DNA of 64,000 bases from Vicinamibacteria bacterium. Its GTDB lineage: Bacteria > Acidobacteriota > Vicinamibacteria > Fen-336 > JAGNNV01. Position numbers and translations under genes: made by a program. The stretch is from the NCBI GenBank assembly GCA_031392925.1, contig JANMVV010000378.1:4766-68765 (forward strand), read 5' to 3'. The notes beneath the pieces were generated by a model that was not told the origin of the DNA, searched no databases, and saw nothing but the letters and a program-made list of their open reading frames with translations. Below are positions 38,467-56,400 of the stretch, piece after piece (position 1 is the first letter of the stretch; every line of letters starts with the position of its first letter).

Positions 38467-40851
38467 TCAGCGCTCGATACGCACGCCGATGACGAAGGCG
38501 CGAGGCGGCTGCACCATGGTGATCCGCCGGTAGTCGGGCTGCCACACGACCTGCTCCTCCGCCTCGAACTGCGAACCAAGCGCGTTGAAGACGGACGCCG
38601 AGATCTCGAGGTCAGCGTTCGCGACCTTGAAGCGCTTCGCGAGCCGCGCATCCACCGACAAGGTGTAGTGAAGCCGTGCGCGGCCTCGCGGAATGGCCTG
38701 GACGAAGTCGGGACCCTGGGGGAGATCGTTCTGGATCACCAGCCGGGCAAAAGGCTGACCGTCGTCGTAACGGGCGATCGCGCCGAAGGTGAAGCCCAAG
38801 ACGTCGTTGGCGGTGAGATACATGCGCAGGCTGTAGGCGCGGTCGAAGAAGAGGCGTCCATAGGCGTAGGTGTCGGCGTTCGTCCGGTCGAAGCTCTCTC
38901 CCACCACGCCGAAATCGTTCTCGCCCACGCGGAGGCTGCGATTGCCGCCGCGACCTGAATCCCTGAACGCCGCTCCAAGAAGGCCCCAGTGGACGTGCTT
39001 CGTGTTCGTGTCGAAGCCAAGCTCCGCGCCCTCGCCCAGTGCGTGATGGTCGGCGGGATTGGTGAGCAGGAACTGCGACTGGGTCAATGAGCGAAGGCTC
39101 TCTTCGACGATCGGCAGGAGCTGATCGTCGGACGGACCCAGGATGTCTCCCGAGGGATCGGGGATGTTTCGAATGGACGCGATCTCCGATCCCTGGGGAT
39201 TGAGTGCTACTTCCATGAGGTCGCGGTCGCGGCGCGCGAAACCAGTGGCGTGGATGCCCACACCCCACACTCTGGTGCGGAAACCCACAATCACCTGACG
39301 CATCGTGGGCAGCGCAAGGTCGGGATCGACGCTCATGGAACCAGGGTTCCGGCTTGCCACCACGCCGCCAAGTTCCGGCGCGGTGGCCAGACGGTCGTGA
39401 TTGAGGTCGCGCCAACGGCGGGCGACCACGGTGGGCGCGTGGCGCGTGGCGGCTTCGTAGCTGACGAGAGGCACCGGGGGCGTGCCGATCGACGCCTCGG
39501 CATAGAGGTTCGTGGTCCCGCTCTTCATCCATTCGAAGCGGAGTTTTGGGAGGACTTTGGTGGAACCAAGGATCCGATCGCCGTCGCGGTCGCCCACGGT
39601 GACGCGCTGAACCTCGACCGTGCCGGCGACTCGCGTCCGCGCCGAAGTTTCAGCCCGAAACGCGATAGCGAGGCCGGCCCGGTTCTCGGCCAGGCGCGAA
39701 GCGGTCCCGCCCAAAAACGTCCATTCCCGAGCGGACGTCCCGTTGAGACTCTCGAGGCCCACGAAGCTCGGTTGCGAGAGGGAACGCGCGCTGGTCGCCC
39801 GGCTGACACGAGCAAGGAGGCTCAGGCTCAAAGAGGAGCTTACGTCCCAGAGCGGTCGGCCGGCTTCGATCTCGACTTTCCCGGCGGTCGAATCGTACGG
39901 GGCTTGCTCGGCGGGCGTGCCGTCGACCAGGCGTTCGAAAGGAAGCGATGAGCCAAAGGTCGGATCCTCGGTAGTCCCGCGGCGATAGGAAACACGGGCG
40001 AACGCGGGGGTCGCGAGGTCGGGGTGGAGCGGGGCCGGAGGCGTTCGCGACCAGGCGCCACCGACCATCAGACCGGTGGCCCGGGTCTCCGCCGCGGTGA
40101 AATCAAACGGCGCGCGCCGCCCCTGATACATCGCGAGCGCCTGAAGCCGATCGTCGCCGCTCAGGTGGTTCAAGCGTCCTTCGAAACCAAGCCGCTGGGT
40201 CGCGCGTTCGAGATCGGACTCGCGTTCCGACCGCGACACGTCCGCGCCGGAAAGAGCGCCGCTCCAGCTCGTGCCGCCGGCCGACGACGAACCGGACGCG
40301 GCGAGAACGCCGTCGAAAAGGCTGTGCCCGCGTGCGAGGGATGGAATCGAATCGGCGGTCGTCCCCCTGGAATCGAACAGGCCCAGATTCCCCTGCGCCA
40401 TGAAGCGCACGTGCTCCGACGCGGCCGCGGCCGGGTGGTCGTGAACGAGGGCCGTTCCTCGCGAGTCGGTGCGCACCTCCACTTCTCCGAGCTCCATAGC
40501 ACCCCACACGAGCGCCCGGCCGCCGAGAATCGGATCGGTCACATCGAACCCGTCGATCTCCACGCGCGACTGGGTCCACGAGCCGCCGCGAAAAGAGAAG
40601 CGCGAGGGCTCGGCGGGAAAGAGTCCGGCGCCTTCCTCACGCTCGAGCACGAGGCCGGAGTTGAGTTGCACCACGCGTGCGGTCAATGAACCGGCGGTGG
40701 GCAGGGCCTTCGCCACCTCGGGCTGGAGGCGCGCAGCCGGGGTTGGAGAAGCCTCGGGTGTCGGGACCCTGTCTTGCGCAAACACGCCGGTGCCCGCAAT
40801 GACGCTCGCCAGGGACGCAATCAGGAGCCGCCGGGCTCTCATCTCAATCAT
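38467..40851 (-). CDS. TonB-dependent receptor-like outer-membrane protein
   Basis: Signal peptide. Plug-like segment (RGGSWTQSRVEIDGFDVTDP). About 790 aa of beta-strand-rich sequence. C-terminus lacks the classic terminal Phe. Confidence 0.6.
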   Translation of the reverse strand: MIEMRARRLLIASLASVIAGTGVFAQDRVPTPEASPTPAARLQPEVAKALPTAGSLTARVVQLNSGLVLEREEGAGLFPAEPSRFSFRGGSWTQSRVEIDGFDVTDPILGGRALVWGAMELGEVEVRTDSRGTALVHDHPAAAASEHVRFMAQGNLGLFDSRGTTADSIPSLARGHSLFDGVLAASGSSSAGGTSWSGALSGADVSRSERESDLERATQRLGFEGRLNHLSGDDRLQALAMYQGRRAPFDFTAAETRATGLMVGGAWSRTPPAPLHPDLATPAFARVSYRRGTTEDPTFGSSLPFERLVDGTPAEQAPYDSTAGKVEIEAGRPLWDVSSSLSLSLLARVSRATSARSLSQPSFVGLESLNGTSAREWTFLGGTASRLAENRAGLAIAFRAETSARTRVAGTVEVQRVTVGDRDGDRILGSTKVLPKLRFEWMKSGTTNLYAEASIGTPPVPLVSYEAATRHAPTVVARRWRDLNHDRLATAPELGGVVASRNPGSMSVDPDLALPTMRQVIVGFRTRVWGVGIHATGFARRDRDLMEVALNPQGSEIASIRNIPDPSGDILGPSDDQLLPIVEESLRSLTQSQFLLTNPADHHALGEGAELGFDTNTKHVHWGLLGAAFRDSGRGGNRSLRVGENDFGVVGESFDRTNADTYAYGRLFFDRAYSLRMYLTANDVLGFTFGAIARYDDGQPFARLVIQNDLPQGPDFVQAIPRGRARLHYTLSVDARLAKRFKVANADLEISASVFNALGSQFEAEEQVVWQPDYRRITMVQPPRAFVIGVRIER

Positions 40852-42919: not shown

Positions 42920-43936
42920 GTGGTAAACCTCGCGCCCATGAGCACGCTCCAGAGAATTCGAGATGAGGCTTCGAGGAATCCGAAGAGAATCGCCCTGCCG
43001 GAGGCCGACGAGCCGCGCATGCTGCAGGCGGCCGCCATCGCGACGAAGGCGGGCCTCGCGCGCATTTCCCTGGTGAGCGCGGACTCGACGAAGGTGCGAT
43101 CCGCGGCCTCGGGCCAGGGCGTCGATCTCGGTGGAATCGATCTCGTCGAGGTGCCCGGGTCCGGCAGGGAGCACGAGACCGTGAAGCGCTTCTATCTCGA
43201 ACGGACGCGCGCAAAGGGTCTGTCGGAGTCCGAGGCGGCCGACCACGTGCGCGGTGCGATGCTCTTCTCCGCCATCGGGGTGTCCCTCGGGACCTTCGAC
43301 GGTTTCGTGGCCGGGGCGCGGGCCACCACCGCGGAAACCCTGCGCGCGGCCCTGCGCGGCATCGGCGCCGCGCAGGGCATCTCCAAGATTTCGTCGTTCT
43401 TCCTGATGGAGACGGGAAACCCGGACCTCGGCGCGTCCGGCGGACTGATCTTCGCGGACTGCGGCGTCAACCCCGACCCGACCCCGGGCGAGCTCGCCGA
43501 GATCGCGTGGCTCGCCAGTCTCAATGCGAAGAAGTTCCTCGGGGCCGAGCCCCGCGTGGCCCTGCTGTCGTTCTCCACCAAGGGCAGCGCCGATCATCCG
43601 CGGGTACGGAAAGTCCGGGCCGCTCTCGAGATAGCCCGCGAGCGATATCCGAGCCTCGAGATCGACGGCGAACTGCAGTTCGACGCCGCCCTCGTTCCGA
43701 GTGTGGCCGCCTCCAAGGCGCCGGGGTCCCAGGTGGCCGGACGCGCGAATGTCCTGATCTTCCCCGACCTCGACTCGGGAAACATCGGCTACAAGATCGC
43801 GGAACGCATCGGCGGCGCTCGCGCGGTCGGCCCGATCCTTCAGGGTCTCGCGAAACCCGCCAACGACCTCTCCCGCGGTTGCTCCGTCGAAGACATCGTC
43901 GACGCGATCGCGATCACGGGACTACAGGCCGACTAA
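42920..43936 (+). CDS. Phosphate acetyl/butyryltransferase (PTA_PTB family)
   Basis: [18 protein letters not shown]-terminal and ...[25 protein letters not shown]-terminal patterns are typical of the PTA/PTB phosphotransacylase fold. Confidence 0.75.
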
Positions 43937-45330
43937 GGAATGATTTCGAACTCGGTTTCCTTGACGTAGTCCTTCTTCGTGGCGTTGTCGCGGAGACGAA
44001 GCTGGGCGATGTACTTGCCGGGGGCGTAGCCGCCGAGCGGCACCGGACCCGCCGAGGGAGTCGCGGGCTCGACGTCGTAGGTCTGATCCGGGGCCTTCGC
44101 GAGCGTCTTGCCTTCCTTGATGATCTGGAAGCCGCCCACCACCGAGATCTTCCCCGTTTCGTCCTTCTGAGCACCGTAGATCGCGGCCAGCAGCGTCACG
44201 GACTCGCTCTTCTTGAAAACGTTGCCGTAACGGGGCACGAACCTGGTGGCGCCGAAAGTGAAGTCGAAGAGAGGATCGTCCTTCGCGGGCGTCGCCCCTT
44301 CCTGAATATCGGCCAGAACCATGACCGGCGACACCGTAAGCTCGACGCCATAGTCCTGGGTCTTGAACGTCATCTCGGCCACCGCCCCCTTGCTCGACTT
44401 GGAATCGATCGCTCCGATCTTCATGGTGTGCTCGCCCGGGCGCAGCGGCATGCCGAACCCGGAAACGAACTTGTTGTCGACGACTTCGGCGGTGACTTCG
44501 CGGTCCATCGACTTGAGCACCCGGCCTTCCTTATCGGAGGAATGAACCGAAACCACCACTTTCGCCATCTTCTTCCCGCCCACGTCCGACACGGTCAGGC
44601 CAGAGGCGTCGCCCTGGATGAGTCCGGCGACGAACACCGAGGCGCCGTCCTGGGAGCGGATCTCCATTACCGGCTTCGCGATGAGTTCGAAGTCTTTGCG
44701 CGGCTCCTTGAGCAGCGCCTGGACCGGTGTGGGCTTCGGCAGCAGATCGGCGAGCTTGACCAGAGAGCCCTTGGAATCGAACTTGTACGACAGGTTGGTC
44801 TGGACGACTTTGAACTCGGCAAGGCGATTCAACTGCTCGGCGAATCGGTTGCCCTGGGGAAGCATGCAGGTGCCGTCGATTGGGATGTCGATCGAGCCGC
44901 CCTTGAACGTCATGGTGGGCCGGTCCTTGTACGTCCAGGTCTCGGGGGACCGGAAGGACACCTCGGCCGTCTGTTCCCTCTTCACCGCGTCGGGGGCGCC
45001 CAGGAGGATGTAGAGGCGTCCGCAGTCGGTCTGCGAACCGATCCGGCCCGCGACCTTGAACTTCGCGTCGACCTCGGCCACCTGCTTCAGGTATTCGGCC
45101 TGAAACTCGTTCTCGGGCGTGTCCAGATTCGGATCGCGCCTGGCCCAGAAGATCTTCTGGAACTCGGCGGCATCGGCGTTGTTCTTGAGACCCTTGTAGG
45201 ACTTCTCTTCCTCGGGAAGGATAAGGGGCCGCACTTCGTCGACCCATTTCTTCGCGTTCTTGTCGAGATCCGCGAGGGCATTGGAGGCGAGAAGAGCGAG
45301 GAGGGCCGGGGCCAAACCAAGACGTTTCAT
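43933..45330 (-). CDS. Secreted protein of unknown function, possible GWxTD-domain relative
   Basis: Signal peptide [35 protein letters not shown]...[17 protein letters not shown] resembles the GWxTD-domain core. Unverified. Start at 45330. Upstream track extension is a shadow. Confidence 0.35.
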
Positions 45331-45500: not shown

Positions 45501-46535
45501 ATGTCTTTCCGAAAACCATCGAGAATCCTGGCCCTCGGGTGTCTCCTGCCCTTCCTGGGCGCGGACGCGTTCGCGGCGCCGAAGGCTGCGAAGAGGGCGC
45601 CGGCACGGTGGATTCCCGTCTCGATCCTGACTCCCCCCGAGGCGTCCGTCTTCGATCTGAGAGTCGGAGAAGCGGCGCGATCCGCCATCCACAATCGGTC
45701 GAACGTCGCCGTGGTCGCCATGGATCCCTGGACCGGACGCGTCCTTACTATCGGCAATCCGCAGTCCGGACTTCTCACCGCCTATCAGCCCTGCTCGGTC
45801 TTCAAGCTCGTGGTGGCGGTGGCCGGACTTACCGAAGGCGTCATCACGCCGGAGTCCCGGTTCAATTGCACGGACGGCTGCTGGATCAGCCCGGGCCACG
45901 GTCCCATCGACCTGCGGCGGGCGCTCGCGGTTTCCTGCAACACCTACTTCGAGTGGGTGGGTGAACGGCTCGGGTTCGAGACCGTGCGCGCTTATGCGCA
46001 GAAGCTGGGCCTTGGTTCCCTGACCGGCATCAATGTGCCGGGCGAGACCGCGGGCGTCATTCCTTCCTCCATCCCAAGTCTCGGCGTCGGCCATATGTCG
46101 TCGCACGCTCAAGGCGTCAAGACCTCGGCCATGCAGCTCGCGGTCCTTATGTCCGCCCTGGTGAACGGTGGCGTGATCAACGAGCCGCAGTTCGTCGGAC
46201 CGCAGGCGGTCAGGGCGAAGGAGCGGTCGCACCTGTCGGCGCCTCCCACCCTGGCACTCCTCGCTCCCGGACTCTTCTCCTCTGTGACCGAGGGCAGCGC
46301 TCAACGCGCTTTCGACCCCGGCTTCGTGGCTTCCGGGAAGACCGGGTCGTGCGCGGGTGTCGGGTGGTTCGCGTCCTCCCTCGGCTACCCGCGTTCGGAG
46401 ATGGTGGTCGTGGCCTTCGTACGCGGAGGAAACGGTGCCGCCGCTTCCGCGGTGGCCGGAGAGTTCTATCGGTCGCTCCTGGGCGTGCCGGCGCCGACGA
46501 ACTCGAGCCTCGCGACCGCAGCGGGCTCGCAGTAA
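45501..46535 (+). CDS. Penicillin-binding-protein transpeptidase domain / class D beta-lactamase-like protein
   Basis: Signal peptide. SxxK (CSVFK). SxN (SCN). KTG (SGKTGS) active-site triad motifs in the correct order and spacing. Confidence 0.65.
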   Translation: MSFRKPSRILALGCLLPFLGADAFAAPKAAKRAPARWIPVSILTPPEASVFDLRVGEAARSAIHNRSNVAVVAMDPWTGRVLTIGNPQSGLLTAYQPCSVFKLVVAVAGLTEGVITPESRFNCTDGCWISPGHGPIDLRRALAVSCNTYFEWVGERLGFETVRAYAQKLGLGSLTGINVPGETAGVIPSSIPSLGVGHMSSHAQGVKTSAMQLAVLMSALVNGGVINEPQFVGPQAVRAKERSHLSAPPTLALLAPGLFSSVTEGSAQRAFDPGFVASGKTGSCAGVGWFASSLGYPRSEMVVVAFVRGGNGAAASAVAGEFYRSLLGVPAPTNSSLATAAGSQ

Positions 46536-46543
46536 AGCAAGAA

Positions 46544-46572
46544 GGCGCCGGCCCCGGAGGGCCGGGCCTTGG
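46544..46572. terminator. Candidate bidirectional terminator hairpin (ggccccgg-aggg-ccgggcc, imperfect) between convergent genes
   Basis: GC-rich imperfect inverted repeat followed by ttgggg. Lies in the 43-bp gap between two convergent stops. Weak U-tract. Confidence 0.25.
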
Positions 46573-46578
46573 GGAGCT

Positions 46579-47757
46579 TTACCGGCGGTCGAGTTTGACC
46601 ACGAGCTTCCTGCCTTCGGCGTCGACGTTGATCTCGGTCTCTTCGGTGCGGTAACCCGGGCGAACAACCTCGACGCGGTGACGGCCGAACGGAAGCTGGA
46701 CCTGCGTCAACTGGGACGCCTTGCCGTGAAACTCACCGTCGATGTAGACAGAGGCGTCGAGCGGAAGGATATCGAAGAGGATTTCGCCCCGGCCGGCCTG
46801 AGGCATCTGGATCACGGGCTGGTCGTTGCGCGGAGAATCGGGGGGCGCGGAATCGACCTCGCGGCCCGGTTCCGGGCGAGGGCGCGGCGGTTCATTTTGG
46901 AGAGTCGCGCGCGCGGGGTCGCGGCCTTGATCCACTGGACGCGCGTATTCCTCGCCGATGGTCTCCCGGGTCTCACCCGTGCCCTTCACCATGTCCCAGC
47001 GAAGCTTGATCGTCTCTCCGCCGCCGGGGTAGACCGAGAAGGTATGCGACGCGTATCCCTCGAGCTTCAGGGTGATGTCGTGGCGACCGGGCGAAACGTT
47101 CAGACGCTGGAACATGCCGTCGAAATCATCCGCCACGCCGGCGTAATAGCCGTCGACATAGACCCGGGTCTTGGCCGGATCGACCAAGGTTCGGATCTGC
47201 TCGCCGTCGTTCCCCTGGCGATACCCGCCGCCAGCCCCACCGCCGTAGTAGGGCGCAGGGGCGTAACCGTAATTGTCGCCATAACCGTAGCCATAGGCGC
47301 CATAACCATAGCCGTAGCCGTAGCCGAGGCCCCCCCCATAACCCGGGTAGCCCCAATAGGCATACGGACTGTAGTAATACGAGGAGTAGGGGTAGCCGTA
47401 ATAAGCGCCATAGCCGTAATACGCGGGGCGGCCATAGTGGTTGTACTCATTGCCGTAGGTGTCGCGATGGCCGGTGCCTGTCCCCGGCCGCGGCCGACGG
47501 CCCTCGGCTCCCGAAGAACTGTACCCGCCGCCCGAACCGCCCTGACTTGGGGCGCCTCCGCCACTCCCGCCGCTCTGCGAGCCACCGCCACCTCCGCTGG
47601 CCTGCGAGCCCCCGCCACCCCCGGTATGCCGAGCGCCCTCGGAAGAGCCGCCGCCACCCCCACCGCCACGGGGGACGGCGTGATTATCGCCTTGCGAGAA
47701 GGCGGTCGCGGCAACCAGGACCAGGGGGACCATTCCGATGACTTTTAGTGTCTTCAT
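46579..47757 (-). CDS. Secreted low-complexity protein: Gly-rich then Tyr/Gly-rich (YG repeats) segment, followed by two PEGA domains
   Basis: Signal peptide MKTLKVIGMVPLVLVAATAFSQG with SD-like gaggt upstream. GGGGGS-type tract. About 80-aa YG-rich tract (GYGYGYGYGAYGYGYG). Two PEGA-like modules (TRVYVDGYYAG..., ASVYIDGEFHGK...RVEVVRPGY). Confidence 0.6.
   Translation of the reverse strand: MKTLKVIGMVPLVLVAATAFSQGDNHAVPRGGGGGGGSSEGARHTGGGGGSQASGGGGGSQSGGSGGGAPSQGGSGGGYSSSGAEGRRPRPGTGTGHRDTYGNEYNHYGRPAYYGYGAYYGYPYSSYYYSPYAYWGYPGYGGGLGYGYGYGYGAYGYGYGDNYGYAPAPYYGGGAGGGYRQGNDGEQIRTLVDPAKTRVYVDGYYAGVADDFDGMFQRLNVSPGRHDITLKLEGYASHTFSVYPGGGETIKLRWDMVKGTGETRETIGEEYARPVDQGRDPARATLQNEPPRPRPEPGREVDSAPPDSPRNDQPVIQMPQAGRGEILFDILPLDASVYIDGEFHGKASQLTQVQLPFGRHRVEVVRPGYRTEETEINVDAEGRKLVVKLDRR
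47220..47667 (-). repeat. Coding low-complexity tandem repeats (Gly-rich then Tyr-Gly dipeptide repeats) inside the PEGA protein gene
   Basis: DNA shows short-period tacggc/tatggc repeats (ggctacggctacggctatggttatggc...). Confidence 0.6.
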
Positions 47758-53489: not shown

Positions 53490-55340
53490 ATGTGCGGAAT
53501 CGCGGGTGTCGTCGAAGCGGAGGGCGCTCCTTCGCGTGAGCTTCTGGAGCGGATGGGGCAGGCCATCGCCCATCGCGGCCCCGATGACGGACGCGTGGAA
53601 GTCTTCGGACGCGCCGGCTTCTCGTTCCGGCGGCTCTCCATCATCGACGTCGCGGGCGGCGCTCAGCCCATCTCCAACGAGACCGGCCGGATCCACGTCA
53701 TGGCGAACGGCGAGATCTACAACTATCTCGATCTACGCCGCGAACTCGAGTTGCTGGGGCATCGCTTCAAGACCCACTCCGACGTGGAAACCATCGTCCA
53801 TGGCTACGAGCAGTGGGGCGACGAAGTGCCGAAACACCTCCATGGCATGTTCGCCTTCGCCATCTGGGACGAAGATCGGCAGCGCCTGCTGCTCGGGCGC
53901 GATCGGCTGGGCAAGAAGCCCCTCGTCTACGCGGAATCACAGGGCAGGATCACGTTTGGCAGTGAATTCTCAGCGGTGCTCGCGGACCAGCGGGTTTCGC
54001 GCGACGTGGACCGGCTCGCGATCCACGACTACCTGACCTATCAGTACGTCCCCGCTCCGGCCTCAGGGTTCAAAGCGATACGGAAACTGCCCCCCGCGCA
54101 TGTCCTGGTCTTCGAGGGCGGCTCCGCGAAGCTCTCTCGCTACTGGCAGCCGAGCTGCACGCCGCGGCTCGACCTCACCATGGAGGACGCGGTCGCGGAG
54201 ACGGAGCGGCGCCTCAAGGAAGCGGTGCGCAAGCGCCTCATGAGCGAAGTTCCCCTGGGCGCCTTTCTCTCCGGCGGCGTCGATTCTTCGCTCATCGTGG
54301 CCCTGATGTCCGAGTTCACGAAGGTGAAGACCTTCTCCATCGGCTTCGAGGAGAGCGGCTTCAACGAACTCCCGCACGCCCGCGCGGTGGCGGAGCGATA
54401 CGCGACCGACCATCACGAGTTCGTGGTGAAGGCGAATGCCGCGGAGGTTCTGCCGAAACTCGTGCGGCATTACGGCGAGCCCTACGCGGATTCCTCCGCC
54501 CTGCCTTCCTACTACCTCGCGAAACTCACGCGCGAGCACGTCACCGTGGCCTTGAATGGCGACGGGGGCGACGAGTTCTTCGCGGGCTACGACCGGTATC
54601 GGGCCCTTCAGTATTTTAAGCTGGCGCGAATCCTGATGCCGCTGGCTCCGGTGGCGCGAGCGTTGTCTCAGTGGCGCGCCCTGCCTCTCCGCGCCCGGCG
54701 CGCCTTCGCCGGCGCCGGCCACGATCCCCGCGAGGCCTATGCGAGGATCATGTCCTACTTCTCGCCGGAGCAGAAGTGTTTCATCTATTCGGACGAGATG
54801 CGGAGTCAGGTCAATGCAGTGGATTCGTTCCAGTGGACTTATGGGTTCATGAAAGAGTGCGGGGAGCCGATCGGCGTCCGCCTGCTTCAATACAGCGATG
54901 CCATGACGTACCTTCCCGGAGACATTCTCACCAAAGTCGATATCGCCACCATGGCCAACTCTCTCGAGGGACGCTCGCCGCTCCTCGACCACGAGCTTGT
55001 CGAGTGGGCGCTGCGACTGCCGGATGCGGTCGGCGCAAACCAGTCCCAAGGCAAACTCGTCCTCAAAGCCCTGGCTCGAAAGCACCTGCCCGCGTCGGTT
55101 ATCGATAGACCCAAGATGGGTTTCGGGATTCCGATCAACCACTGGTTCGGGGGTGAACTCCAACCGATGGTCCGCGACATTCTTCTCTCTCAACGGGCTC
55201 GCGAACGGGGACTCTTCAACCCCGCGGCGGTGGAGCGGTTGATCTCGGATCATGTTTCGGGCCGCGAGGTCCACGGCTACCGACTCTGGGCCCTGCTGTG
55301 TCTGGAGCTGTGGTTTTGCGAGGTGGTGGATGGTCGGTAA
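53490..55340 (+). CDS. asnB: Asparagine synthase (glutamine-hydrolysing) family amidotransferase
   Basis: N-terminal nucleophile MCGIAG (class II GATase). PP-loop SGGVDSS. 616 aa. Confidence 0.85.
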   Translation: MCGIAGVVEAEGAPSRELLERMGQAIAHRGPDDGRVEVFGRAGFSFRRLSIIDVAGGAQPISNETGRIHVMANGEIYNYLDLRRELELLGHRFKTHSDVETIVHGYEQWGDEVPKHLHGMFAFAIWDEDRQRLLLGRDRLGKKPLVYAESQGRITFGSEFSAVLADQRVSRDVDRLAIHDYLTYQYVPAPASGFKAIRKLPPAHVLVFEGGSAKLSRYWQPSCTPRLDLTMEDAVAETERRLKEAVRKRLMSEVPLGAFLSGGVDSSLIVALMSEFTKVKTFSIGFEESGFNELPHARAVAERYATDHHEFVVKANAAEVLPKLVRHYGEPYADSSALPSYYLAKLTREHVTVALNGDGGDEFFAGYDRYRALQYFKLARILMPLAPVARALSQWRALPLRARRAFAGAGHDPREAYARIMSYFSPEQKCFIYSDEMRSQVNAVDSFQWTYGFMKECGEPIGVRLLQYSDAMTYLPGDILTKVDIATMANSLEGRSPLLDHELVEWALRLPDAVGANQSQGKLVLKALARKHLPASVIDRPKMGFGIPINHWFGGELQPMVRDILLSQRARERGLFNPAAVERLISDHVSGREVHGYRLWALLCLELWFCEVVDGR

Positions 55341-56400
55341 GGGTCGAGGCCTCGGCCCCCTGTTCTTCGACATCAGCCATCCTGTCCAGGCGCTCATGCT
55401 GCGCCCGGTTATCGAAGCTCTTCGGAGCGAGGGTTTCGCGGCCCGCGTCTTCGCTCGGGACAAGGACGTCACCCTCGGCCTGCTCGAGGGATTCGGAATC
55501 AAGGCGTCGACCCTGGCCAAGCGTCGGCGCGGGCTCGTGGGCGCCGCCGTCGAACTGGTGACCCGGGAGGCGAGGCTGTTGCGCCTCGCTCTGGCCGAGC
55601 GGCCGGCGGCGATCATCGGAACCAGCGTTCACGCCGCACGAGTCGGACGCCTCAGCGGAGCGTTATCGGTCGTGATCAATGACGACGATGCCGCGGCCGT
55701 GCCTCTGTTCGCGCGTCTCGCCTACCCGCTCGCGGACCTGATCGTGAAGCCCGCGTGCCTTGACTTCGAGAATCACCCAAGGCAGGTGACGTACCGGGGG
55801 AATCAGCAGCTCTTCTATCTGCACCCAGCGCGATTCCAGCCCGACCCGGCGATCCGGAGCGAGCTGGGGCTCGGCGCCACCGAGCCCTTCGGGGTCGTTC
55901 GCCTTTCCGCTCTCGACGCTCATCACGACACCGGTGTCCGCGGCATCGGGCGAAGCCTGCTCCAGACCATCGGAAACCAGCTCCCGGAAGACCTGGTGGT
56001 CTTTGCGTCGCTCGAAAAGGCTCAGGATCTGCCGGGGCGTTGGAGGTTGATGCGACTCCCTCCAGAGCGTCTGCACCATGCTCTCGCCGCGGCGGAGTTC
56101 TTCATCGGCGACGGTCAGACCATGACCGCCGAGGCGGCGGTGCTTGGCACTCCGGCGTTGAGGTTGAACGACTTTGTGGGCCGAATTTCCTACCTTAAAG
56201 AGCTGGAGAACTACGGCCTCGCGTTTGGATTTCCTCCCGGCGACGAAGCGTTGCTCCTGGCCCGGCTTGCCGAAATCCTGAATGGACACCGCCCGAGGAC
56301 TCAATTCATCGAGGCGAGAGCCCGTTTTCTCTCTGATATGGTTGACCCGCTCCCCTGGCTCGTTGACCTGGTGTTAAGCCGTCTCCGCCCTCATGCCTGA
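55330..56400 (+). CDS. DUF354-like protein (GT-B / epimerase-related fold)
   Basis: N-terminus LFFDISHPVQALMLRPVIEALRSEGF resembles the DUF354 opening motif. 11-bp overlap with asnB end, 8-bp overlap with wecB start. Confidence 0.4.
   Translation: MVGKGRGLGPLFFDISHPVQALMLRPVIEALRSEGFAARVFARDKDVTLGLLEGFGIKASTLAKRRRGLVGAAVELVTREARLLRLALAERPAAIIGTSVHAARVGRLSGALSVVINDDDAAAVPLFARLAYPLADLIVKPACLDFENHPRQVTYRGNQQLFYLHPARFQPDPAIRSELGLGATEPFGVVRLSALDAHHDTGVRGIGRSLLQTIGNQLPEDLVVFASLEKAQDLPGRWRLMRLPPERLHHALAAAEFFIGDGQTMTAEAAVLGTPALRLNDFVGRISYLKELENYGLAFGFPPGDEALLLARLAEILNGHRPRTQFIEARARFLSDMVDPLPWLVDLVLSRLRPHA

Follow-up and report, generated by a model that had tools for sequence, protein, structure and literature searches.

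A predicted disordered, tyrosine-rich arm joined to two PEGA domains in a protein family of Vicinamibacteria

Why would an apparently exported acidobacterial protein carry a stretch of almost 90 residues of which one third are tyrosine? The question is raised by a minus-strand gene at positions 46579–47757 of a 64,000-nucleotide stretch of contig JANMVV010000378.1 (assembly GCA_031392925.1, a Vicinamibacteria bacterium); the whole stretch is called the window below. An earlier reading from the sequence alone (the sequence-only reading) had described a secreted protein with a Gly-rich linker and a Tyr/Gly-repeat tract fused to two PEGA domains, and had suggested a matrix protein, adhesin or functional-amyloid-like surface protein. 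The Acidobacteriota rank among the most abundant bacteria of soil, and little work has been done on the biology of their envelope. Our analysis showed that the gene is real and that the Tyr-rich tract is conserved in composition and position rather than in sequence, and we tentatively read the protein as an exported, multivalent cross-linker of the envelope or matrix.

The gene, its protein and the tyrosine-rich arm

The minus-strand open reading frame (ORF) is a real gene. Its ATG at 47757, with GAGG 9 nt upstream, gives a protein of 392 amino acids (aa) and its TAA stop codon lies at 46579–46581. P0001, the closest homolog in public data (98% identity), shares its start and its length, and another, independent public assembly (Logan SRR20217210) contains exactly this protein. 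A longer ORF from a TTG codon, reaching 47835, was rejected since homologs do not use that start; P0001 begins with MKTLK and has 392 aa. The guanine-plus-cytosine (GC) content is 61–69% throughout the window and about 65% in the genome, and because of this many long spurious ORFs lie over the gene on both strands. The antisense ORF of 463 aa (46357–47748, plus strand) and the other overlapping ORFs look like artefacts of a GC-rich genome, as domains and homologs were found only in the minus-strand frame. The parts of the gene are as follows.

46579–47757, minus strand: complete gene for an exported Tyr/Gly-rich PEGA-domain protein (392 codons plus TAA; ORF and full-length homologs)
47689–47757, minus strand: signal peptide, aa 1–23 (MKTLKVIGMVPLVLVAATAFSQG), with K2, K5 and an 11-residue hydrophobic core; predicted cleavage after S-Q-G, before D24
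47668–47688, minus strand: conserved motif DNHAVPR-G at the predicted mature N-terminus, aa 24–30; A27 and R30 at least 90% conserved in alignment A1 (45 sequences)
47503–47667, minus strand: Gly/Ser-rich spacer, aa 31–85, predicted disordered from composition and model confidence
47470–47502, minus strand: invariant RRPRPGTGTG-type motif (RRPRPGTGTGH), aa 86–96, between spacer and Tyr tract (alignment A1)
47209–47469, minus strand: Tyr/Gly-rich, predicted disordered tract, aa 97–183, with 29 Tyr in 87 aa
46954–47208, minus strand: PEGA domain 1 (PEGA1), aa 184–268, from Pfam PEGA, AlphaFold2, Foldseek and invariant columns
46795–46953, minus strand: predicted disordered inter-domain linker, aa 269–321, here rich in Pro, Arg, Asp and Glu
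46582–46794, minus strand: PEGA domain 2 (PEGA2), aa 322–392, with the best Pfam stretch at aa 332–381, high model confidence and invariant columns

The signal peptide, Gly-rich spacer, Tyr/Gly tract and two PEGA modules described by the sequence-only reading were confirmed by the sequence, Pfam and AlphaFold2. The hydrophobic core of the signal peptide showed a Kyte-Doolittle mean of 2.78. Cleavage is predicted after S-Q-G, and distant homologs show a canonical A-x-A at the aligned position. Alignment A1 contained 37 invariant columns, including the PEGA cores and R87, P89, G92 and G94 of the RRPRPGTGTG motif, which were invariant in 45 of 45 aligned homologs. The two short motifs are thus highly conserved amid otherwise fast-evolving disordered sequence; the first (D-N-x-A-V-P-R-G) is duplicated in homolog P0096, and both may be processing or docking sites. 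An amino-terminal Cu/Ni-binding (ATCUN) site formed by D-N-H was rejected, as the His at position 3 is not conserved and most relatives have Arg or Lys there.

Residues 23–92 are 46% Gly and 17% Ser, with a GGGGGS-type stretch of about 55 aa. Tandem Repeats Finder detected a 27-bp tandem repeat at 47554–47623 (aa ~45–68; 2.6 copies, 81% match), which encodes a Gly-rich unit of roughly 9 aa with the sequence GGGGGSQASGGGGGSQSGGSGGG here. The Gly-dominated spacer of the window's sub-lineage looks like a recent duplication; the spacers of most relatives are Ser-dominated.

Pfam PEGA (PF08308) matched the protein twice, with 58.8 bits against a gathering cut-off of 20.8. The invariant core of PEGA1 is VYVDGYYAG..DDFDG..QRL..PGRH, and PEGA2 showed the conserved pattern P-x-D-A-S-V-Y-V-D-G ... 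G-R-H-R-I-E-V-V-R-P-G-Y. Weak matches to CarboxypepD_reg (carboxypeptidase-regulatory-like) were also seen on PEGA1. At E ≤ 0.1 the Pfam scan of the protein gave nothing beyond PEGA and CarboxypepD_reg-like matches and nothing enzymatic, and the NCBIfam search gave no family match.

AlphaFold2, run with a 45-sequence alignment, predicted two confident beta-sandwiches at aa 185–268 and 322–392, each with 7–8 strands. The predicted local distance difference test (pLDDT) score was 93–98 over PEGA2 and mostly 84–97 in PEGA1, save one loop dip; in both domains most of the scores lay above 90. Each is an all-beta transthyretin-like sandwich of about 70 aa, as expected of a PEGA domain. Residues 1–184 were nearly all below 50 and the inter-domain linker scored about 46–54, and both are predicted to be disordered. 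The Tyr tract (aa 100–180) showed a pLDDT of 31–39 and no secondary structure, its disorder being a prediction, and the model contained no beta-solenoid.

Foldseek against the PDB returned generic transthyretin-like and carboxypeptidase-regulatory beta-sandwiches, with no functional lead among them. Matches at probability 1.00 were the C-terminal, transthyretin-like domains of carboxypeptidases D and N and the N-terminal extension (NTE) of SusC; others were the PapC usher C-terminal domain, cohesins and a chain of the RtkS-PpkA complex. Several of these, judged by their molecule names, stand in protein- or ligand-interaction contexts. A PDB sequence search with the family profile found no relative. 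On the modelled fold, the folded parts would be small interaction-type modules and not enzymes.

The tract itself (aa 97–183) is 33% Tyr and 30% Gly, about 61% Gly plus Tyr, and the overlapping stretch aa 113–196 gave similar values (31% and 30%). Both strings that the sequence-only reading had quoted, GYGYGYGYGAYGYGYG and YYGYPYSSYYYSPYAYWGYPGYGGG, are present in the translation. Tyr averages 1.5% in four neighbouring genes, a background at which 29 Tyr among 87 residues have a binomial probability of ~5e-31. The maximum per 60-aa stretch was 25 Tyr in the tract and at most 7 in any other window ORF of at least 100 aa. As the tract is written in AT-rich TAY codons in a 65% GC genome, its Tyr enrichment runs against mutational bias.

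Replication slippage, which the sequence-only reading had named as a possible undoing of its proposal, and an assembly artefact were both rejected. Tyr is written with both codons (16 TAC, 13 TAT); the repeats of 12 and 21 bp that Tandem Repeats Finder detected in the tract DNA are weak and imperfect; the protein is identical in the second assembly; and P0001 differs by 7 substitutions and 0 indels, with 5 of the 7 within aa 95–118. The same reading had counted absence or variability of the tract in related strains as grounds against its proposal; the tract was Tyr-rich in essentially all relatives, from 98% down to about 35% identity.

Family, export and neighbourhood

A word-indexed search brought up more than 1,190 homologs, of which the best 120 were nearly all 340–425 aa long; the few shorter ones are probably partial. 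Those inspected or aligned among them share the architecture of the window protein, many aligning end to end with 100% coverage; the few that are named bear the label 'PEGA domain-containing protein [Vicinamibacteria bacterium]'. When a profile was run exhaustively against 1.84 billion representatives, 720 clusters at 50% identity matched at E ≤ 1e-30. At E ≤ 1e-10 there were 4,927 clusters, and the weaker or multi-stretch matches include unrelated multi-PEGA proteins. The sequence-only reading had called Tyr/Gly-rich low-complexity tracts uncommon in bacteria; with about 720 clusters and routine occurrence in Vicinamibacteria, this was overstated.

The relatives among GTDB species representatives were essentially all metagenome-assembled genomes (MAGs) of Vicinamibacteria or other Acidobacteriota, with the more distant ones in Vicinamibacterales, Polarisedimenticolia and Thermoanaerobaculia. 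Most hosts are uncultured; where the name of a MAG or sample hints at a habitat, it seems to be soil or activated sludge. Four loci (L013, L015, L073, L085; 35–71% identity) lie on contigs, most of them short, binned as Saprospiraceae, Amaricoccus, Patescibacteria or Betaproteobacteria, and are probably binning errors for the most part. L013 and L015 are probably mis-binned because they keep the Vicinamibacteria-type transpeptidase neighbour, and L013 the GWxTD gene as well (both described below). Two MAGs each contain two family copies on different contigs, L008 and L021 in MAG_454_bin-04 (75% and 57% identity to the window protein) and L033 and L084 in STL-ACI20 (45% and 54%); these are either true paralogs or mixed-strain bins. 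No paralog was found within the window. Taken over these searches, the family is large and appears to be a vertically inherited core gene of Vicinamibacteria.

The subfamily to which the window protein belongs can be defined by a signal peptide, a low-complexity spacer, an aromatic tract directly before PEGA1 (VYVDGYYAG..DDFDG), a charged or Pro-rich linker and PEGA2, in ~330–425 aa. Both anchor motifs were present in 98 of the top 120 homologs, and between them the tract measured 60–91 aa with 27–40% Tyr. Among 114 full-length representatives, mutually at most 50% identical, the best 50-aa window before PEGA1 held at least 15 aromatic residues in 110 (median 23, or 46%). Thermoanaerobaculia and Polarisedimenticolia relatives showed the same design with His/Gly/Ser spacers and Tyr/Phe/Trp/Pro tracts. 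In the single Vicinamibacterales relative that we examined (L078), the spacer is built of Ala, Gln, Pro and Gly and the tract is about 50 aa long. In some distant relatives the tract is a stub of about 7–25 aa.

The regions of the protein differ strongly in mean pairwise identity in alignment A1. The RRPRPGTGTG motif reached 0.79, PEGA1 0.65, the AVPRG motif 0.64 and PEGA2 0.58; the Tyr tract, with many indels, reached 0.42, the Gly/Ser spacer 0.36 and the linker 0.20. The composition of these regions in the same alignment was Y 35%, G 21%, S 10% and R 8% for the tract (57–87 aa), S 38% and G 27% for the spacer (43–63 aa), and R 22%, D 20% and E 14% for the linker (R 21%, D 19%, E 13% over 200 members). 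The linker is thus an Arg/Asp/Glu polyampholyte in most relatives. A 62-aa piece of the tract alone was also used as query against 5.8 billion proteins, a search that the sequence-only reading had proposed; it gave 1,490 word-sharing candidates and none at E ≤ 1e-3. What is conserved in the tract is its composition and position rather than its sequence, and on this comparison the tract is under selection at the composition level across the phylum.

Composition ratios over 200 family members showed a further pattern. K/(K+R) was 0.04 in the N-terminal arm and 0.02 in the linker, compared with 0.34 and 0.18 in the PEGA domains, and Y/(Y+F+W) was 0.86 in the arm, compared with 0.61 and 0.52. The disordered parts therefore strongly prefer Tyr over Phe and Arg over Lys, set among Gly, Ser and Pro. 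Such residues between such spacers, predicted disorder, and composition kept while sequence diverges are the marks of aromatic sticker-and-spacer regions. A study of FUS reports that Tyr-Arg cation-pi interactions contribute to phase separation (PMC5927716). In galectin-3, the N-terminal domain undergoes aromatic-driven liquid-liquid phase separation and agglutination, and the beta-sandwich domain binds the ligand (PMC7060198). By analogy, the Tyr and Arg preference, Gly/Ser spacers and composition-only conservation of this family match the grammar of FUS-type domains and galectin-3.

Signal-peptide features were present in 196 of 215 relatives and a second transmembrane-like segment in 1 of 215. 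The mature part has no Cys in 188 of 200 relatives, nor in the window protein; a lipobox-like match occurred in 1 of 200 relatives and in the window protein there was none. Pfam and NCBIfam found no surface-layer homology (SLH) or other anchor domain in the protein, and no recognised surface anchor or sorting module (SLH, PEP-CTERM, C-terminal domain of the type IX secretion system, lipobox or autotransporter barrel) was found. The C-terminus reads ...VVKLDRR and has no hydrophobic segment, and so differs from a PEP-CTERM signal. Lacking a lipobox, a membrane anchor and any recognised signal for surface sorting, the protein would by default stay in the periplasm of a diderm cell. Further secretion by a signal-less route such as the type II secretion system, or by the adjacent MacAB-type pump, is conceivable. 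The cell-surface or S-layer location suggested by the sequence-only reading found no support in the sequence: the one targeting feature is a Sec signal, with no lipobox, second transmembrane segment or anchor domain.

The gene ends in a terminator-like structure, listed here with its nearest neighbours.

46532–46582, minus strand: GC-rich hairpin followed by a U-rich run, terminator-like (RNA fold −33.9 kcal/mol, z = −5.8; terminator scan match)
45501–46535, plus strand: standalone, secreted penicillin-binding protein (PBP)-type transpeptidase of 344 aa, without the N-terminal pedestal domain, convergent with the PEGA gene
43933–45321, minus strand: GWxTD-domain protein (TIGR04514, 74 bits), beyond the transpeptidase
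48100–~52700, plus strand: exporter operon of MacA (HlyD-type), MacB ATPase, FtsX and FtsX, divergent from the PEGA gene

The hairpin fills the 43 nt that separate the two convergent genes, and the outer part of its stem overlaps the PEGA stop codon. Because of this strong terminator-like hairpin, the PEGA gene is probably monocistronic. A sigma-70 promoter scan found none, and an Rfam scan of the whole window found no RNA family and thus no riboswitch upstream of the gene. The transpeptidase motifs SVFK, SCN and KTG were read by eye, and its best matches, all weak, were PBP2 and class-D beta-lactamase models. A literature search for GWxTD found no papers.

We fetched 87 related loci for synteny. 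The order LpxB(−) / PEGA(+) / transpeptidase(−) / GWxTD-like(+) is kept down to about 36% PEGA identity, and most related loci whose flanks are long enough, by a large margin, share the transpeptidase/GWxTD arrangement of the window. Six loci lack the transpeptidase, so that the next gene after PEGA, on its strand, is the one for the GWxTD protein. Upstream of the PEGA gene, members of the window's subclade carry MacAB-FtsX; a MOSC gene stands between MacA and the PEGA gene in at least L001, L004 and L005 and is missing in the window, which has about 340 bp there. Other neighbours include PTA and LysR. The conserved neighbours in Vicinamibacteria, LpxB, the 344-aa transpeptidase and the GWxTD protein, are all envelope-related, and no dedicated secretion, nucleation or cross-linking gene was conserved beside the PEGA gene in the loci examined.

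Relatives in Polarisedimenticolia, Thermoanaerobaculia and Vicinamibacterales have different neighbours. An operon-based link to the transpeptidase, GWxTD protein or MacAB was rejected, as the genes are convergent or divergent, a terminator-like hairpin follows the PEGA gene and synteny is lost in other acidobacterial classes. Given how the genes are oriented, and that synteny is lost outside the class, gene order here is no proof that the neighbours are functionally coupled.

Further out in the window, at 53490–56400 (plus strand, 6 kb from the PEGA gene), a homolog of glutamine-hydrolysing asparagine synthase (616 aa) is followed by a DUF354 protein; as a guess only, the pair might be the start of a glycan or exopolysaccharide (EPS) cluster. 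On the other side, 38467–40851 (minus strand) holds an ORF of 794 aa without a Pfam match. ORFs lacking Pfam matches occur at the matching position in L004 (797 aa, cut at the locus end) and L001 (970 aa).

What the arm may do

The reading we favour, tentatively, is that of an exported multivalent cross-linker of the envelope or matrix. The protein would be a Sec-exported, non-lipidated, non-enzymatic envelope or matrix protein, with its two PEGA beta-sandwiches serving to bind some component of the envelope. The disordered N-terminal arm would be a flexible Gly/Ser spacer that bears an extremely Tyr-rich sticker tract. Arm and Arg-rich polyampholyte linker together could make many weak pi-pi and Tyr-Arg cation-pi contacts with other copies of the protein or with partners. 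The outcome might be a gel- or condensate-forming glue scaffold in the periplasm or, if the protein is secreted further, in the extracellular matrix. Galectin-3, whose aromatic N-terminal domain and beta-sandwich lectin domain bridge and agglutinate ligands, offers a parallel. Self-association, binding partner and final location are all points that we infer. The broad suggestion of a matrix-type self-associating protein, made by the sequence-only reading, is thus the best available one on composition grammar, and its specific amyloid or adhesin form found no support.

Several points weigh against such a cross-linker. Its self-association is read from composition only. FUS-like domains are roughly 10–15% aromatic and the tract, at 33–46%, is far denser; so dense a tract might aggregate, fold on binding or be cross-linked instead of forming a reversible gel. 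The bias for Arg over Lys may owe something to mutational pressure towards GC, acting on disordered sequence under weak constraint. The linker of the window protein is Pro-rich, unlike the strongly Arg/Asp/Glu-rich linker of most relatives. The synteny, absent in Polarisedimenticolia and Thermoanaerobaculia relatives and made of convergent and divergent neighbours, may reflect descent only. The AVPRG, RRPRPGTGTG and DDFDG motifs are accounted for neither by the cross-linker model nor by its rivals.

A possible but unlikely alternative is that the tract binds a non-protein target, either a polysaccharide (EPS, peptidoglycan or lipopolysaccharide sugars, by CH-pi stacking) or mineral and humic surfaces, the protein then being an anchor or adhesin that tethers a PEGA-bound cargo. 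Aromatic side chains are the usual sugar-stacking residues of carbohydrate-binding proteins, and Tyr in place of Phe fits hydrogen bonding and stacking to polar ligands. The conserved neighbours LpxB and PBP-type transpeptidase are envelope-glycan enzymes, the asparagine synthase/DUF354 pair 6 kb away might, as a guess, belong to a glycan or EPS locus, and cells in the apparent habitats, soil and activated sludge by sample name, live in aggregates. However, Pfam and NCBIfam found no carbohydrate-binding module or cell-wall-binding repeat in the protein, and the searched literature held no precedent for a disordered tract of 35% Tyr as a glycan binder. To meet minerals or EPS the protein would need a further secretion step, and no surface-export signal was found.

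Covalent assembly is improbable by our estimate. Here the tyrosines would be oxidatively coupled (dityrosine) or otherwise cross-linked after export, giving an insoluble elastic or protective layer. With about 61% Gly plus Tyr the tract resembles eukaryotic structural Gly/Tyr proteins, and precedents for such a layer are resilin, the plant Gly-rich cell-wall proteins and the Tyr-rich spore-coat proteins of Bacillus. High-glycine-tyrosine keratin-associated proteins form an established class (PMC3269608, PMC4820716). As Cys is absent in 188 of 200 relatives, a covalent network would need Tyr. The conserved neighbourhood, however, showed no peroxidase, laccase or tyrosinase gene, and a simple filler needs neither invariant short motifs nor two folded domains. 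We also know of no cyst, spore or sheath in the host bacteria.

It is slightly less probable still that the disordered regions are entropic linkers or tethers that position the PEGA domains, the aromatic residues having no specific role. Envelope proteins often contain spacers rich in Gly/Ser or Pro, and in this family one spacer chemistry can replace another (Gly/Ser in the window clade and Ala/Gln/Pro/Gly in L078). Over the wider family the tract, too, differs in length, between about 7 and about 90 aa. But at 65% genomic GC a spacer that evolved neutrally would lose a Tyr share of 35%, written in AT-rich codons, rather than keep it over about 720 clusters at 50% identity, and the aromatic tract always stands directly N-terminal to PEGA1 while spacer composition drifts.

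Very unlikely, in our view, is a surface functional amyloid or adhesin whose Tyr/Gly tract stacks into cross-beta fibres: alternating aromatic/Gly segments do resemble amyloid-prone segments of the low-complexity aromatic-rich kinked (LARKS) type, but there were no curlin, Fap or TasA-type repeats or family matches (Pfam, NCBIfam), no beta-solenoid in the AlphaFold2 model, a tract pLDDT of 31–39, no nucleator, chaperone or outer-membrane channel gene in the locus and no surface-sorting signal, and the tract, poorly conserved and with no homolog when searched alone, is unlike amyloid repeat units and contains much Gly and Pro with interspersed Arg and Asp, which disfavour long ordered beta-sheets. 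In its favour, PEGA was originally described from proteins of the cell surface (PMC2447325). The functional-amyloid-like label of the sequence-only reading, having gained no repeat family, solenoid or nucleator/secretion operon, is neither supported nor excluded.

A more specific form of the cross-linker proposal, which we consider speculative, is that the family is a natural, phylum-wide bacterial former of extracytoplasmic condensates or hydrogels with a Tyr/Arg sticker grammar like that of eukaryotic proteins that phase-separate, making a gel-like layer in the periplasm or surface matrix that PEGA domains anchor to envelope polymers. If so, it could aid aggregate formation and the desiccation or stress tolerance of soil and sludge Acidobacteriota. 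If the cross-linker reading is true, the family would allow aromatic sticker-and-spacer assembly beyond the cytoplasm to be tested cleanly in a bacterial protein. It would also be a candidate factor in cell aggregation or envelope mechanics in soil and activated-sludge communities, and would offer materials engineering a small natural module, rich in Tyr, for adhesion or gel formation. Whatever its function, the tract is selected for its composition, and the subfamily can be defined operationally by motifs, architecture and synteny.

PEGA is a database-annotated, known family, and the protein is not categorically new; the subfamily with a Tyr-rich arm and two PEGA domains is undescribed in the literature that we searched. 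That search (PEGA with Acidobacteria or Vicinamibacteria, and Tyr/Gly-rich bacterial periplasmic proteins), made over 8 million papers, returned no paper on the subfamily or on an exported Tyr-arm PEGA protein. A paper on OCTIN was dropped as a lead: it mentions PEGA only among the N-terminal extensions of FGE-domain proteins, which has no bearing on this family.

Comparison with known systems

Lpo-type lipoprotein regulators of PBPs combine a disordered linker with a small globular domain; they carry a lipobox Cys, which the window protein lacks. The streptococcal and clostridial YG repeats (CW_binding_1) share with it the name and the Tyr-Gly dipeptides only. Those glucan- or choline-binding repeats are folded units of about 20 aa with a conserved aromatic-Gly pair, whereas the YG runs of the window protein are low-complexity, predicted disordered and without a profile match (Pfam, E ≤ 0.1). 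The amyloids CsgA, Fap and TasA are likewise exported, potentially self-assembling and without Cys, but the window protein showed no repeat units, beta-solenoid prediction, nucleator/secretion operon or match to their families.

Structural proteins rich in Gly and Tyr play matrix or cement roles between structural elements. Resilin and the plant Gly-rich proteins share the dominance of Gly plus Tyr and the GYG-type runs, as do the high-glycine-tyrosine keratin-associated proteins (PMC3269608, PMC4820716). All of these are eukaryotic and unrelated by descent, and the window family differs from them by its fusion to folded PEGA domains. Keratin-associated proteins are, in addition, small and contain Cys, whereas the window family is essentially without it.

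The aromatic density of FUS is about one third of that of the window tract. FUS-family low-complexity domains, whose Tyr stickers are paired with Arg-rich regions, are, like the window family, disordered, with Tyr over Phe, Arg over Lys, Gly/Ser spacers and composition-only conservation (PMC5927716). The differences are that FUS-type proteins are nuclear or cytoplasmic while the window protein is exported, and that the window protein has no RNA-binding domains and is not Gln/Asn-rich; phase behaviour of the latter would be by analogy.

Among PEGA proteins (PF08308) the window protein is at home by its two matches above the cut-off, its transthyretin-like fold and the names of its nearest relatives. 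The generic profile lacks the DDFDG loop, the Tyr-rich arm and the AVPRG and RRPRPGTGTG motifs of the window subfamily.

Galectin-3 is not homologous. It has 12 aromatic residues in its N-terminal domain, compared with 29 Tyr in 87 aa here, and a lectin domain in place of two PEGA domains, and the window protein is bacterial and may be periplasmic. The two nevertheless share the module order, an extracytoplasmic setting, a disordered aromatic N-terminal arm joined to a beta-sandwich and reliance on Tyr or Trp, and for galectin-3 the self-association that we propose here has been observed (PMC7060198).

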